Source of the DNA: an uncultured Chloroflexia bacterium
Lineage (GTDB): Bacteria > Chloroflexota > Limnocylindria > Limnocylindrales > CSP1-4
Assembly: GCA_963719145.1 (NCBI GenBank)
Contig: CAVRAX010000001.1
Span: 1,017,729-1,081,728 of the forward strand
Direction of reading: 5' to 3'
DNA: 64,000 bases
Shown here: positions 54,385-59,368 of the stretch, piece after piece
Layout: the number at the start of each line of letters is the position of its first letter
How positions within the stretch are numbered: position 1 is the stretch's first letter
The notes under the pieces: model-generated
Told to the model about the DNA's origin: nothing
Database searches by the model: none
What the model saw: the letters and a program-made list of their open reading frames with translations, nothing else
Position numbers and translations under genes: made by a program

Positions 54385-55194
54385 GCCCTCGCTGCGACGG
54401 CCCGGGCTCGCTCGGCCAGGAGCTCGAGGACTGCCGGTGCGGCGGCCCGTTCGGCAGCCGTGAAGCGGCGGCGCTCGTGGCTGCTCCGGACCTCCAGCGC
54501 GGCGCGGACGAGGGGCGCATGCTCGGGCAGCCGGTCGATGACCCAGGCCGCCCCTTGCTCCTTGGTGCACAGGGCCCCGGACTCGAGCGAACGGAGCAAT
54601 CGACACAGGGTCAGGAGCCGATAGGCGAGAAGGCCGTCGGGCGCGTCATCGCGCGGCGCAGCGACGAAGTCGTCGAGACGCCCGACGATGGTCGCCAGGA
54701 ACTCCCGCGCCTCGATTGTCGGGATCAGCGTCGACGGCGCGGGGCCGACGAGGGCCCGATCGGCGTCGCGGACCAGGAACCAGGTCTCGAGCCAGTCGTC
54801 GGCCCGCGCAAGACGCCGGAGCGGCAGCGGGTGGCTGATCTCCAGGAACGGCCCCCCCGACCGGAAGTCGGCCAGCGTTCGGTGTCCGATGAAGACGATG
54901 TCGAGCCGATCGGCCCAATCCGGCTCGCGCTGCTGGAGCCGCTCGATGATCCCGGCGAAGACCGCCTGCGGGGTCGAATTCGACGGATCGCTCGGTCGTC
55001 ACGACGAGGTCGAGGTCGCTCAGCTCGGGATCGAAGCCACCGCTGACCGCACTCCCATACAGGTAGGCGCCGACCAGCTCGGCGTCGAGGGCGGACCGGA
55101 GATCCGCGATGAGCGCCTCGAGGATCCGGTCGAGTGGTGGCAGTGCCTGGGCATGCCTCACGGCGCTGACACCTGCCTGCTGTTCACCGCTCAT
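54381..55194 (-). pseudogene. Aminoglycoside nucleotidyltransferase-like (AadA/DUF4111) gene, frameshifted
   Basis: YLYGSAVSGGFDPELSDLDL, then a frame change near 54980, continuing to LLTLCR...CTKEQGAAW. Confidence 0.8.
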
Positions 55195-55417
55195 CGAGTC
55201 TACGCGTGCCTCTGCGGCCACGGTGAGCGTTCGGCAGGCGGCCGACCCTCGAATGCGCTGCGAGCACTCGCCGGTGACGACCTCGATCTCCGTCGGGAGT
55301 GAGCCGGGCGCCACTCCCTGGGTTTCCCCCAACCTGGCTCCCCCGCGTTGGCAACGCGTGTGGTCTTGGTGCCCGGATGGGCCAACCTGGTTCAGTGTTT
55401 GGAGCGGCTTTACGGTC

Positions 55418-55540
55418 TCAGTGGGCGATCGGGGTGCCGCCTCCATCGGCGAGGGCGACGGCGGCCGACATCAGGGCGATGGCGGTCCCGATGATCCAGG
55501 AGGTGACGATCGGACGCGAAATCCGGAAGCGACGAAGCAT
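55418..55540 (-). CDS. 40-aa secreted pre-peptide, candidate signalling peptide
   Basis: MLRRFRISRPIVTSWIIGTAIALMSAAVALA|DGGGTPIAH; AAAGGGG RBS; own consensus promoter. Confidence 0.75.
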   Translation of the reverse strand: MLRRFRISRPIVTSWIIGTAIALMSAAVALADGGGTPIAH

Positions 55541-55595
55541 TGGACAGACCCCTTTCTCTCCGAGGGGCCCGTCCGGGCTCAAGACGGCGGCCGCA

Positions 55596-55643
55596 TTGCC
55601 TGCAACCACCAGTGATGCTACGGTTCCAGCATGGGGAAGTCAA
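55596..55643. promoter_or_regulatory. Overlapping divergent sigma70 promoters with ATGCT-N8-AGCAT inverted repeat
   Basis: Minus strand TTGACT(55643-55638)-17-TAGCAT(55620-55615); plus strand TTGCCT(55596-55601)-17-TACGGT(55619-55624), 6 nt before ATG 55631. Confidence 0.75.
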
Positions 55644-55981
55644 GTATTGCTAAACATCTCCACGTCGGCGCCGGCTCGGCCGCAGCGTGGGAAGTGGGGC
55701 GACGCGTCAAGGCCCGACGCCTGGCGATCGGGATGACCCAGTCGCAGCTCGCCGCGCCCCTGTCGCGTGGGTTCGTGTCGGCCGTCGAGAAAGGGCAGGC
55801 GCTTCCCTCGCTCGGGTCGCTCTGGCTGTTCGCCTCGCGGCTCGGCACCGGGGTCGGCGATCTCGTCGACGGAGTCAACGGCGTAGAGACTCCGGAGTAC
55901 ACTGGCGGTCATGGCAGCGCGGCCACCCCAACCCAGCTCCCCGGGGGCAACCACGACCCGACGTCATCGGGTCGTCGCTGA
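55631..55981 (+). CDS. Stand-alone XRE HTH protein
   Basis: GRRVKARR...MTQSQLA...FVSAVEKG...PSL. Confidence 0.85.
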   Translation: MGKSSIAKHLHVGAGSAAAWEVGRRVKARRLAIGMTQSQLAAPLSRGFVSAVEKGQALPSLGSLWLFASRLGTGVGDLVDGVNGVETPEYTGGHGSAATPTQLPGGNHDPTSSGRR

Positions 55982-57242
55982 CGACACCCCGTTGGCCCGC
56001 CGGATCGGCGAGCGCCTCCGGCGGGCGCGCAGCGCGGCGGGCCTGACCCAGTCGCAGCTCGCGGCCGGGCGGTACACGAAGGCCTACGTGAGCGCCCTCG
56101 AAACCGGCCACAGCAAGCCGTCGATGGCCGCCCTGAACTTCTTCGCGGGTCGCCTCGGCATCGCGGCCAGCCGCTTCCTCGACGACGAGCCGGCCTCGTG
56201 GCGGCGGCTCGAGGTCGATCTCGACCTGGCCTCGGGCCGATGGCAGGCCGCCGCGGACGGCTACCGCGACCTCCTCGAACAGGCCCCAGGCCGCGAAACC
56301 CGGGCCGAGCTCCTCCGCGGCCTGTCCGAGGCGCTCGCCGCGCTGGACCGCGGCGCGGACGCATCCGCCGCCGGGGCCGAGGCGGCCCACATCTTCACGT
56401 CGCTCGGCCGGGACGCCGACGCTGCGATCGCCCGCTACTGGCTCGCCGCCGGCGAGTACGCCCAGGGCAACACGGTCGAGGCCGCGTCCATCTTCCGCGA
56501 CATCCTCGAACGAGTTCGGGCTGGCCTGCGCGTCGAGCCCGACTTCGAGCTGCGCCTGGTCATGGCCCTGTCGAGCACGGCCTCGCGGGATGGGCGCCAC
56601 GAGATCGCCCTTGCCTATCTCGAGGAGGTTCGGGCGCTGGCCGAATTGCTCGACGATCATCGGCGGGCGACGTTCCTGTACGACCTCGCGTACAGCTATC
56701 GGGAGACCGGCGACTTCGAGGCCGCCATCCGAACAGGGATCGCGAGCCTGGCGCTGTACCGGGGATCCACGTTCGACCTCGGGACCGCGTCGCTCGAGAA
56801 CGACCTCGCGCTCTCGTTCCTGGCCGTCGGCAACCTGGCCAGGGCCGCCGAGTTCGCCACGAGCTCGCAGGCCCGGTTCGAGAAGCTCGCGGATCGCCGC
56901 TACCTGGCGCACGTCCTGGAGACACGCTCGCAGATCGCGTTCGCCGCCGGCGACCAGAGCGGTGCTCGAGACCTCGCCGCCGAGGCCCTCGACCTGGCCG
57001 AGGAGACCAAGAACGAGAAGGCGACCGTCGGCGCCCTCCTGGCGCTGGCCCGGGCTGATCGAGCCCTTCAGAACCCGGGGGCGGCCGCCCCGCTCTATGA
57101 ACGGGCGGTTGCGCTGGCCCGCGGCTCGATGCGACCGGGCCTCATCCGCGACGCCATCGGCGAATGGGCGGACGTCCTGACCGAGATGGGCCAGCATGAA
57201 CGAGCCGCAACCCTCCTCCGCGAGGCGCTCCGAGTCGTCTGA
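55911..57242 (+). CDS. XRE-HTH plus TPR regulator (RRNPP/NprR-like architecture)
   Basis: N-terminal XRE HTH, then about 8-9 TPR-like repeats (LAYSYRETGDFEAA, LALSFLAVGNLARA); TACACT-7nt-ATG. Confidence 0.88.
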   Translation: MAARPPQPSSPGATTTRRHRVVADDTPLARRIGERLRRARSAAGLTQSQLAAGRYTKAYVSALETGHSKPSMAALNFFAGRLGIAASRFLDDEPASWRRLEVDLDLASGRWQAAADGYRDLLEQAPGRETRAELLRGLSEALAALDRGADASAAGAEAAHIFTSLGRDADAAIARYWLAAGEYAQGNTVEAASIFRDILERVRAGLRVEPDFELRLVMALSSTASRDGRHEIALAYLEEVRALAELLDDHRRATFLYDLAYSYRETGDFEAAIRTGIASLALYRGSTFDLGTASLENDLALSFLAVGNLARAAEFATSSQARFEKLADRRYLAHVLETRSQIAFAAGDQSGARDLAAEALDLAEETKNEKATVGALLALARADRALQNPGAAAPLYERAVALARGSMRPGLIRDAIGEWADVLTEMGQHERAATLLREALRVV

Positions 57243-57336
57243 GCCCGGCCGCGCCGGCTCGGCGCGCGTGCCCGACACCATCGGGATCACCCGGATCGAT
57301 CGAGGACTCGTCCACGCGGTGCCATGAAGTACAGTT

Positions 57337-58185
57337 ATGCTTGACCTCGAGCAGCCAGACGCATCACTGGAGGGCGCGATCAGTAGCGTGCTGTCAGCCG
57401 AGCCCGCGCGAACGAGGCAGCACGTCGTCCGGCTGCTCGCGGCGGTGCTCCAGGATCCAGCGTCTCTGCGGCCGGTGTTCCAGCCGATCCTGTCGCTGGC
57501 CAGCGGCACGATCGTTGGCTACGAGGGCTTCAGCCGATTCGCCGTCGTCCCGCGGCGGCCGCCGAACGCGTGGTTCGCGGAGGCGACCCGTTTCGGCCTC
57601 GGCGCCGAGCTCCAGGCGCACGCGATCCGGCGGATCCTCGGCGCCGCCGGAGATACCGGCCTCCCGCCCGGCACGTTCCTGTCGGTGAACGTCAGTCCCC
57701 AGTACCTCGCCCACGAGGAGGTGGTCGCGGCGTTCGCCGAGGCCGACCCCTCCTCGCTCGTCATCGAGCTGACCGAGGACGAGGCCGTCCGCGACTACCG
57801 GGCGTTGCGGCGGGCGATGGCCCCCTATGTCCGGCGTGGCGTGCGCTTCGGGGTCGACGACGCCGGCGCCGGCTTCGCCTCGATGCGCCACGTGATCGAG
57901 CTCCAGCCGACGTTCGTGAAGCTCGATGCCACGCTCATTCGCGGGATGGGCAGCCGCGAGACGCTGCGAGCCTTCCTGCGCGCGATCAACGGCTTCACGA
58001 CCGAGATCGGGGCGACGCTCGTCGCCGAAGGCGTCGAGGACCCGAGCGACCTCACCGTCCTGACCGAGACCGGGTTTCCGATCCTGGCCCAGGGGTTCGG
58101 CATCGCCCGCCCGGGTGCCCCCTGGCCGGCCCCCAGCTCCCTCTCGATGCGCTCCTGGCGCGAGGCCAGCCGAGTTCGTTCGTGA
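57337..58185 (+). CDS. Stand-alone EAL-domain protein (c-di-GMP phosphodiesterase-like)
   Basis: FQPI, YEGF, SVNVS, IELTE, DDAGAGFAS, VKLD, VAEGVE, QGF. Confidence 0.9.
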   Translation: MLDLEQPDASLEGAISSVLSAEPARTRQHVVRLLAAVLQDPASLRPVFQPILSLASGTIVGYEGFSRFAVVPRRPPNAWFAEATRFGLGAELQAHAIRRILGAAGDTGLPPGTFLSVNVSPQYLAHEEVVAAFAEADPSSLVIELTEDEAVRDYRALRRAMAPYVRRGVRFGVDDAGAGFASMRHVIELQPTFVKLDATLIRGMGSRETLRAFLRAINGFTTEIGATLVAEGVEDPSDLTVLTETGFPILAQGFGIARPGAPWPAPSSLSMRSWREASRVRS

Positions 58186-58228: not shown

Positions 58229-59368
58229 TCAGAGGCCCGACGGGATCGACGCCTCCAGCAGCTCCCAATCGCCCGGGACGCCCTTCAGCGTGAATGAGCC
58301 GATCGACCGGAAGGTGAAGCCGGTCCCGAACGTCAGGTCCCGAACCGTGCTCGTGACGAGAACCTGACCGGCCCCGGCCTGGGCGGCGACGCGGGCCCCG
58401 ATGTGGACGCCGATCCCGCCGAAGCCGGTGTCCCGGCGCTGGATCTCGCCGGTATGGACCCCGGCCCGGATCCGGAGATCGAGATCCGACAGCGCTCGCT
58501 GCAGGCCGAATGCGCACTGGAGGGCCCGGGTGGGCGTGTCGAAGACCGCCATGATCCCGTCGCCGGTGCTCTCGACGTGGCGGCCCAGCCAGCGCCCGAC
58601 TTCGCCACGGGCGATCTCGTACTGCCGATCGACGAGCTCGCGCCAGGGGCGGTCGCCCATGCTCGCGGCGCGGGCGGTGGAATCGACGATGTCGGTGAAC
58701 AGGACGGTGGCCAGGATGCGGTCGGCGTTCTGGGCGGCCTCGAACGAGCGGATCTGCTCGTCTGTCCAGCTGTACTCCTCGACGTACGGGCTGGTCGGTA
58801 CCTCGAGCTCTCGGCGATACGTCAGCAGCACGACGCCGGTAGCGAATGTCCGCGTGCTGACCAAGGCCAGGTGGCGGGTCGCGATCCGATCGGCGAAGAG
58901 ATGCTTGCCGCTGCCGAGCACGACCGGGAAGACGAGGAGGCGGTACTCGTCGATCAGGTCGTGAGCCAGGAGCGCATTCGTGAGATCGGCGCTGCCGTAC
59001 ATCACCAGGTCGCCGGCCTCGCGGGCCTTGAGCCCCTCGACGTCGGCCGCGGCGTCACCCGAGAGGATCGTCGTGTTCGTCCAGTCGGCCCGACGGAGCG
59101 TCCGCGAGACCACGTACTTCGGGATCTCGTCGAGGCGGGTCTTCAGGAGGCTGGCCGGAGCCGTCGGCCAGAAGGCGGCCCAGAGCTGGTAGGTCTTCCG
59201 GCCGAGGAGGATCGCATCCGCGTCCAGGATCTGCTGCTGGTTCCAGGCCTCGTTCTCGGCGTCCTGGAGCCGCAGCGCCCAGGCGTTGCGACCATCGCGA
59301 TGCTCGTCGTGCCCTGGGGCTTCCATGACCCCGTCGAGGGTGAGGAAGGCGGTCGAGATCAGGCGCAT
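58229..59368 (-). CDS. RibD-C/DHFR-like domain fused to a class III nucleotide cyclase
   Basis: TLDG, LLGRKTY, YGSADL, LIDEY.L.VFPVVLGSGK; then LFTDIVDST, TGDG, GVHTGE, VHIGARV. Confidence 0.88.
   Translation of the reverse strand: MRLISTAFLTLDGVMEAPGHDEHRDGRNAWALRLQDAENEAWNQQQILDADAILLGRKTYQLWAAFWPTAPASLLKTRLDEIPKYVVSRTLRRADWTNTTILSGDAAADVEGLKAREAGDLVMYGSADLTNALLAHDLIDEYRLLVFPVVLGSGKHLFADRIATRHLALVSTRTFATGVVLLTYRRELEVPTSPYVEEYSWTDEQIRSFEAAQNADRILATVLFTDIVDSTARAASMGDRPWRELVDRQYEIARGEVGRWLGRHVESTGDGIMAVFDTPTRALQCAFGLQRALSDLDLRIRAGVHTGEIQRRDTGFGGIGVHIGARVAAQAGAGQVLVTSTVRDLTFGTGFTFRSIGSFTLKGVPGDWELLEASIPSGL

Follow-up and report, generated by a model that had tools for sequence, protein, structure and literature searches.

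The stretch of DNA analyzed here (the window) comprises 64,000 nucleotides of contig CAVRAX010000001.1 (positions 1,017,729 to 1,081,728) from an uncultured Chloroflexia bacterium. The system in question is a cassette at window positions 55,418 to 58,185, in which a 40-residue open reading frame (ORF) with the anatomy of a secreted pre-peptide lies divergent from the gene of a candidate receptor that joins an XRE-type helix-turn-helix (HTH) to tetratricopeptide repeats (TPRs). The source genome is 71% G+C and consists of 3.47 Mb over 7 contigs. A first-pass annotation, made from the letters alone, had taken this genome for a non-Bacillota one, in accord with the names carried by homologs of the receptor (Chloroflexota, or Candidatus Limnocylindria/Limnocylindrales). 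It had also described a small ORF with signal-peptide anatomy, a ribosome-binding site and a TTGACT-17-TAGCAT promoter, divergent from XRE, XRE-TPR and EAL genes, and all of these were recovered in place.

The pre-peptide gene (55418..55540, minus strand) starts with ATG and encodes 40 aa plus a stop, with a predicted Sec-type signal peptide followed by a short tail. A Shine-Dalgarno (SD) sequence, GAAAGGGG (55550..55557, minus strand), lies 9 nt 5' of the ATG, and a sigma-70-type promoter (55615..55643, minus strand) consists of a -35 element TTGACT (55643-55638), a 17-nt spacer and a -10 element TAGCAT (55620-55615). Divergent from this gene, on the plus strand, are the genes of a 116-aa XRE-family HTH-only protein (55631..55981; Pfam HTH_3, 5e-7), of the 443-aa XRE-TPR candidate receptor (55911..57242; Pfam HTH_31, 1e-6, and TPR_12, 2e-18, more exactly 1.9e-18) and of a 282-aa stand-alone EAL-domain protein (57337..58185; Pfam EAL, 7e-40). 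Two copies of a putative 17-bp operator punctuate the cassette: operator 1, the pseudo-palindrome GTCAAGTATTGCTAAAC (55639..55655), lies within codons 3-9 of the 116-aa XRE gene, and operator 2, GTACAGTTATGCTTGAC (57329..57345; position weight matrix (PWM) match 57327-57347), reads TTGACC on the plus strand and overlaps the annotated ATG of the EAL gene.

An ORF this short, with no Pfam or NCBIfam family found for it, might owe its open frame to chance, or might be a leader sequence that acts in cis in the 5' region of the divergent promoters. We compared it across 80 related loci, taken from 450 confirmed receptor loci in species-representative genomes. A hidden Markov model (HMM) of the small ORF, built from 43 rule-chosen ORFs, was run on the 9,980 closed stop-to-stop segments of these loci; it superseded both a strict tail regular expression, which picked up only 17 of the 80 loci (one with an extra false match), and a run-of-uncharged-residues rule, which missed members with Pro in the core. 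With the HMM, 69 of the 80 Limnocylindria loci show the small ORF immediately upstream of the receptor and divergent from it (E≤6e-9), 26 of the 69 being non-seeds, while its best match anywhere else in these loci has E = 0.012. Eleven loci have no small-ORF match, and four of them have less than 400 nt of upstream DNA. Within the genus, a tblastn search with the 40-aa product shows the small ORF adjoining a receptor homolog in 10 of 11 loci, the window's own included, and the counterparts are stop-bounded ORFs of 39-53 aa that all end exactly nine residues past an x-L/F-A site. With a looser criterion (leader plus short tail), upstream-divergent sites are as numerous as sites elsewhere (46 vs 46); adding the C-terminal motif described below changes this to 37 vs 2.

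The signs of translation point the same way. A start codon yielding 37-46 aa can be assigned in 67 of the 69 HMM-found ORFs, and an SD-like motif stands at -18..-4 in 63 of 68 family members, compared with 17% of random 20-mers from the same loci. Differences at codon positions 1, 2 and 3 number 587, 399 and 1135 over 88 pairs, a clear excess at the third position. Public gene callers from several sources have already predicted ∼200 homologs; of the 120 matches listed, those that carry a name are all called 'hypothetical'. A chance frame or a cis-acting leader is hardly credible in the face of an ORF that recurs with the same length and frame, a nearly constant SD and third-position substitutions, and we are highly confident that the small gene is real.

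The 40-aa product consists of a basic n-region, ∼20 hydrophobic residues, the triplet A-L-A, and then the nine-residue tail DGGGTPIAH and the stop; the signal-peptide part, which ends at A-L-A, is 31 aa long. All but one of the 68 family members are 37-41 aa long. Numbering back from the C-terminus, 59 of the 68 have A at position -10 and 67 have A, V or T at position -12, which is the -1/-3 rule of signal peptidase I placed at a fixed distance from the stop. From this n/h/c anatomy and the conservation at -3/-1, the product probably begins with a Sec-type signal peptide that ends in a small-x-small site. We considered the possibility that it is instead an uncleaved, N-in, single-pass small membrane protein with a short outside tail, which would contact the regulator at the membrane (in a sequestration or anti-repressor role) or act on another membrane complex. 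The hydrophobic core is indeed long enough to span a membrane, and ≥90% of members keep an Arg at n-region position 9. However, signal peptidase I needs a small-x-small site and an anchor does not, yet the site is kept at its fixed distance from the stop; helix-breaking residues (P/S/G) precede it in many members; and the 31-aa leader falls in the usual monoderm range. We consider an uncleaved membrane protein improbable.

The tail combines a constant frame with variable content. Of the 68 members, 61 have F, Y, I, W or L at position -3, 53 have P at -2 and 57 have H, R or K at -1, while Gly, Thr, Pro and Ser make up most of the stretch between the small-x-small site and this C-terminal motif. 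In one clade the tail is just six residues long (QTPYPH type). The 68 members carry 61 different tails, which follow the receptor clades on the tree. Sister species differ in the tail in 19 of 21 equal-length pairs, the last residue has switched between H and R/K at least eight times independently on supported branches, and paralogous systems in one genome have different tails. As judged from the sequences, this diversity is pherotype-like.

The small gene and the candidate receptor gene stay together. The first-pass annotation had expected a conserved small ORF beside receptor homologs, and such an ORF is present class-wide, in the 69 of 80 loci described above and also in rearranged and paralogous copies. 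A second receptor copy was found in nine genomes, and eight of the nine are accompanied by a peptide ORF of their own, whose tail differs; five of these ORFs are divergent-upstream and three convergent-downstream. The adjacency thus survives both duplication and rearrangement. It holds down to ∼46% receptor identity, and the genes on the far side are not conserved. In the window itself, the two genes are not direct neighbors, since the 116-aa XRE gene separates them. A second HTH-coding region likewise lies between peptide gene and receptor in 34 of 67 related loci (window included), and the two are direct neighbors in the other 33. In a class-level survey, based on a draw of 400 further genomes of the phylum, no genome outside the class yields a receptor match at E≤1e-100. 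Within it, such matches are present in 11 of the 23 genomes drawn from the window's family and in all 16 from a sister family; five other genomes of the draw have only weaker ones (1e-22 to 1e-43). The small ORF stands beside 17 of 28 further class-level loci, which overlap in species with the 80-locus set and are not independent of it. We consider a functional tie between the small gene and the regulator very likely.

One distant receptor relative, in another family of the phylum (L137, 923-1336 after reorientation; E = 3e-33), has a co-directional small ORF upstream with a similar leader and a tail that ends in G-G-G-C-C (HMM E = 5e-5). This ORF may belong to a distant version of the system whose tail bears Cys.

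The candidate receptor has an N-terminal XRE HTH at approximately residues 27-89 and a TPR superhelix at approximately residues 94-441. In its AlphaFold model (mean predicted local distance difference test score (pLDDT) 86.4), residues 1-20 are disordered and are followed by a five-helix XRE domain and a continuous helical-repeat superhelix (94-441). The N-terminus is conserved over 13 receptor homologs, which supports the long start of the 443-aa gene, and homologs are 372-457 aa long among the 120 matches listed. In a Foldseek search against the PDB, LGN/Pins lead the list and PlcR and the Rap proteins follow at ranks 31-48, a result that does not discriminate between families. With an exhaustive aligner, the Z scores of the model are 27.6 for LGN, 27.2 for Pins, 25.8 for Rap of phi105 with its peptide (root-mean-square deviation (rmsd) 3.8 over 325 aligned residues), 24.7 for RapI, 24.3 for MalT domain III, 23.7 for NprR-NprX, 21.0 for RapH, 19.8 for AimR and 18.2 for PlcR; the best bacterial matches are Rap, RapI, MalT domain III and NprR. 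By sequence profile, the HTH resembles PlcR (1e-6) and ComR (9e-6) and the TPRs resemble RapH (8e-5), and no NCBIfam model scores above its cut-off. On profiles and model, the protein would fit the RRNPP-like type of receptor, a similarity of XRE and TPR parts that is generic and does not by itself establish descent from the RRNPP family. Co-folding of the TPR part with the 40-aa pre-peptide gave a score of 0.02 (mark 0.32), which we use neither for nor against binding. The 116-aa XRE protein is 39% identical to receptor residues 9-91 and is a short paralog of the receptor's DNA-binding domain; the 3' end of its gene overlaps the start of the receptor gene by 71 nt.

TTGACT-17-TAGCAT is the sole sigma-70-like match in 55300-57500 (mean over 50 shuffles, 0.0), and the pattern TTGAC[CT]-N16-18-TAnnnT precedes the small ORF at 47 of 68 loci, compared with 32 of 3000 random 200-mers. 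The intergenic regions have one island in common, GTCAAGTATTnnTAAAC, with variants that include the perfect GGTCAAGT-N3-ACTTGACC and GTCAA-N7-TTGCC; perfect GTCAA-N7-TTGAC forms are present in related loci. Each of the 68 loci yields an instance, and within a clade its spacing to the small ORF is similar; the left half-site reads as the complement of the -35 element of the peptide promoter. In loci that lack the 116-aa XRE gene these bases are non-coding, indicating that conservation acts at the DNA level. We regard this 17-bp pseudo-palindrome of GTCAA-N7-TTGAC type as a putative operator.

A PWM made from 41 distinct instances was run over both strands of the whole 3.47-Mb genome (6.9 Mb) at a threshold of 14, and only five matches exceed it. 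Operator 1 is on top with 39.9, and operator 2, at the EAL start, scores 19.5. The other three are C4:319352 (25.0) and two weaker ones, C4:11834 and C3:753283, and no related genes lie near any of them. The second-best site, C4:319352, stands after a gene that ends at 319330 and ∼200 nt before a 308-aa ORF of no assigned family; the site could represent a distant part of the regulon, or could match by chance. Within the window, the first nine codons of the 116-aa XRE gene (M-G-K-S-S-I-A-K-H, 55631-55657) overlie operator 1 and are conserved at the nucleotide level. By eye, a -10-like TACGGT precedes the ATG of this gene by ∼7 nt, which suggests a leaderless transcript.

Operator 2 would link the cassette to the EAL gene. 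In five loci (the window and four close relatives), it is the only conserved island in the spacer between receptor and EAL gene, and a conserved GGAGGG lies 3' of it; the true EAL start may be the in-frame GTG at 57388, after the GGAGGG. The Pfam match covers EAL positions 12-236 of 236, and the motif Glu (here in E-G-F), the DD pair, the K and the E-G-V-E motif, which we take to be the catalytic set, are visible by eye in the translation; the protein falls below the cut-off of every NCBIfam equivalog. Equivalent second sites stand just after the receptor stop in ten other loci, and in the clade with six-residue tails they stand between the peptide gene and an EAL gene on the other side. The genes behind these second sites encode an EAL protein, an EAL-REC-LuxR protein, a hybrid kinase-REC protein or a 97-aa protein. 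The proposal of the first-pass annotation that the cassette controls turnover of cyclic di-GMP (c-di-GMP) gains from the second operator copy at the EAL start and loses from the EAL gene being linked in just 19 of the 80 loci, on either side of the cassette. The EAL protein, of c-di-GMP phosphodiesterase type, is a likely regulated output in the window's clade. Across the loci, the downstream neighbors form no single conserved family (EAL in 6, DUF72 in 7 and DUF3090 in 6 of 64; neighbor genes were called by a GC3-based rule, under which the receptor was lost in 9 loci).

The 97-aa protein is encoded by a conserved ORF of about that length, with no Pfam family, downstream of the receptor at L036 (4492-4785) and at the equivalent places in L037, L042, L056, L057, L067, L082 and L090. 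It starts ∼25 nt after the second operator-like site and is a candidate direct target.

These features can be assembled into a signaling circuit. The 40-aa pre-peptide would be transcribed from its own sigma-70 promoter and exported by Sec, and a cut by signal peptidase I after A-L-A would free a nine-residue peptide with no pro-region. The peptide would build up outside the monoderm cell and be brought back by an oligopeptide importer of the Opp/Dpp type, for which the genome offers five SBP_bac_5 genes as candidates, none of them linked to the cassette. Inside, it would bind the concave face of the TPR superhelix of the 443-aa receptor, a dimer of which would sit on the 17-bp GTCAA-N7-TTGAC-type operator. 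Operator 1, over the -35 of the peptide promoter, would close an autoregulatory loop; operator 2, at the EAL start, would make c-di-GMP turnover the output in the window's clade, and in other clades the output would be the hybrid kinase, the EAL-REC-LuxR protein or the 97-aa protein. Because the operator half-site coincides with a near-consensus -35, the more likely sign of regulation would be repression by the unliganded regulator that is relieved by the peptide. We regard it as an even call whether the cassette is an RRNPP-like, autoregulated peptide-signaling system that feeds into c-di-GMP turnover here. A broader reading we hold more tentatively, at a little short of even: Limnocylindria would share a class-wide, species-specific peptide language in which a cytoplasmic XRE-TPR receptor detects a minimal pre-peptide; the system would be the first case outside the Bacillota of peptide quorum sensing through a cytoplasmic receptor, possibly of independent origin, with at most two orthogonal channels per genome; and the GTCAA-N7-TTGAC operator would wire it to c-di-GMP and hybrid-kinase signaling.

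The same arrangement raises a simpler possibility: the XRE-TPR protein, or the 116-aa XRE protein, could be a local transcription factor of the small gene and its neighbors, with TPRs that sense something else. The secreted peptide would then be an output, such as a signal for a membrane sensor elsewhere, a peptide that binds metal or otherwise acts outside the cell, or an inter-species cue. An operator at the peptide promoter shows regulation, not sensing; hybrid histidine kinases are among the downstream targets; and TPR domains bind many ligands, with MalT domain III among the high scores listed above. Receptor paralogs that lack a peptide gene keep flanking GTCAA-N7-TTGAC sites, indicating that the regulator can work without an adjacent peptide. 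What such a local regulator accounts for poorly is the persistence of the pair: peptide gene and receptor remain adjacent through inversion of their order and through duplication, and across receptor identities down to ∼46%, while the far-side neighbors are not conserved. A two-gene unit with species-specific tails is, according to the text of Bernard et al. (2023), a hallmark of a receptor-ligand cassette. We consider it rather unlikely that the regulator and the peptide are related only as transcription factor and target.

Several further observations weigh against peptide sensing by the XRE-TPR protein. The first-pass annotation had proposed to look for a C-terminal peptide that co-varies with its receptor: no receptor column tracks the last tail residue (H vs R/K), the best one being concordant in 3.6 of 8 switches, in a test of 8 independent contrasts on supported branches and 639 column-class tests that has little power. 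Between sister species, differences per site are 0.212 in the tail and 0.221 in the signal part, which means that the tail changes neither faster nor slower than the leader. In one clade a lipobox-like V-A-A-C stands ahead of the tail, and the peptide there, if lipidated, would not be freely diffusible. In the fetched flanks of 7 of the 80 loci with enough flank, and of 8 sister-family loci, there is no candidate peptide ORF, indicating that orphan receptors exist. The SBP_bac_5 family occurs in 11 of 14 reference genomes used as a control, and the presence of importer candidates has little power to discriminate. TPR folds are generic, with eukaryotic LGN/Pins at the top of the fold matches and MalT domain III scoring like NprR. 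The operator could be bound by the 116-aa XRE protein instead of the receptor, and binding of the peptide to the receptor is itself a proposal.

Eight receptor paralogs without a peptide gene (L123-L125 and L127-L131) carry GTCAA-N7-TTG[AC]C sites in both flanks, and the site in one flank matches the GTCAA-N7-TTGAC palindrome perfectly. Such paralogs may be orphans responding to the peptide encoded by a second system in their genome.

Two further ORFs flank the cassette. On the peptide-gene side, a 266-aa ORF (54646-55446, minus strand) has an NTP_transf_2 (nucleotidyltransferase) match confined to residues 124-157, its C-terminal half resembles an out-of-frame, Arg/Pro/Ala-rich translation, and its 5' extension runs into the end of the peptide gene; this is probably a gene that has decayed or suffered a frameshift. 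On the other side, convergent with the EAL gene (58229-59368, minus strand), lies a gene whose product fuses a RibD_C-like domain to an adenylate/guanylate cyclase catalytic domain (Pfam 2.7e-23 and 2.9e-6). This is a second nucleotide-signaling gene adjoining the cassette, and it stands beside the cassette in just 2 of the 80 related loci.

If the circuit operates as proposed, peptide communication through an intracellular receptor extends to another phylum, and the loci supply dozens of natural peptide-receptor-operator triplets for tests of specificity and for orthogonal circuits. It would also open a way to study social behavior, through c-di-GMP and with it attachment or motility, in organisms that still await cultivation: the Limnocylindria are an abundant, essentially uncultured lineage of soil and freshwater Chloroflexota. 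With parts this small (a 443-aa protein, its 17-bp site and a 9-mer), direct biochemistry is feasible.

It is instructive to compare the cassette with known peptide-signaling systems. In passages of Bernard et al. (2023), of Felipe-Ruiz (2022) and of Moi (2025), the RRNPP family is placed only in Bacillota/Firmicutes and their mobile elements, namely phages and plasmids. Full-text searches, whose reach did not include the supplementary tables of Bernard et al. (2023), returned no paper linking RRNPP to Chloroflexi, Chloroflexota or Limnocylindria, and the cassette is undescribed in the literature searched. The text of Bernard et al. (2023) gives five in-silico criteria (size, Sec export, receptor length, TPRs and adjacency): a pro-peptide of 10-100 aa with SignalP-positive Sec export, and a receptor of 250-500 aa with TPRs, encoded by direct neighbors. 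The analogy to RRNPP systems drawn in the first-pass annotation stands with respect to the size of the small protein (40 aa), the length of the receptor (443 aa) and its repeats (TPR_12 and other TPR models); for Sec export it is the anatomy that agrees (n/h/c regions, small residues at -3/-1). The analogy gives way on strict adjacency, which is absent in the window and present in about half of the loci (33 of 67); homology to the RRNPP family is visible only as generic HTH/TPR similarity.

LGN/Pins and MalT domain III share with the receptor top or equal fold scores, and the binding of a peptide or small ligand in a concave groove. They have no such HTH fusion and no partner peptide gene, and their scores indicate that a fold match alone cannot assign a family. 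Among bacterial proteins, Rap is the best structural match to the TPR part (phi105 25.8, RapI 24.7, RapH 21.0), and its partner Phr is Sec-exported and active as a short C-terminal peptide, as the product of the small gene would be. Rap has no HTH and acts on proteins, not on DNA, and Phr pro-peptides need further extracellular processing; in contrast, the receptor of the cassette has an HTH, and its pre-peptide has no pro-region.

In layout, the cassette recalls the Rgg-SHP and PrgX-PrgQ systems of streptococci and enterococci. There, the peptide gene is divergent from the receptor gene, the regulator site lies in the shared intergenic region at the peptide promoter, and the mature peptide is the C-terminal 7-9 residues. 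The cassette has the same divergent order, an operator at the peptide promoter and a short C-terminal tail. The leaders differ: in the account given in the text of Bernard et al. (2023), SHP and PrgQ have no Sec signal peptide, being exported by PptAB and cut by Eep, whereas the leader of the cassette is a classical n/h/c signal peptide with a small-x-small site.

In composition, the cassette resembles PlcR-PapR, NprR-NprX and AimR-AimP: a receptor of 250-500 aa, predicted here to be cytoplasmic, whose XRE-type HTH at the N-terminus precedes a TPR superhelix at the C-terminus; a small neighboring gene for a Sec-exported pro-peptide (here by anatomy) whose C-terminal residues would be the signal; many allelic peptide variants on a conserved frame; and putative control of the peptide gene and adjacent genes. 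It differs from them in its host phylum, which is Chloroflexota (class Limnocylindria) and not Bacillota, and in a receptor whose profile similarity to theirs is only the generic one of HTH and TPRs. Its peptide gene is divergent from the receptor gene in most loci, whereas papR and nprX reportedly sit downstream of their receptor genes. Its tails are Gly-rich and end in a hydrophobic residue, Pro and a basic residue. Finally, its pre-peptide has no pro-region, consisting of a signal peptide plus 6-9 residues, which means that signal peptidase alone would make the mature peptide.

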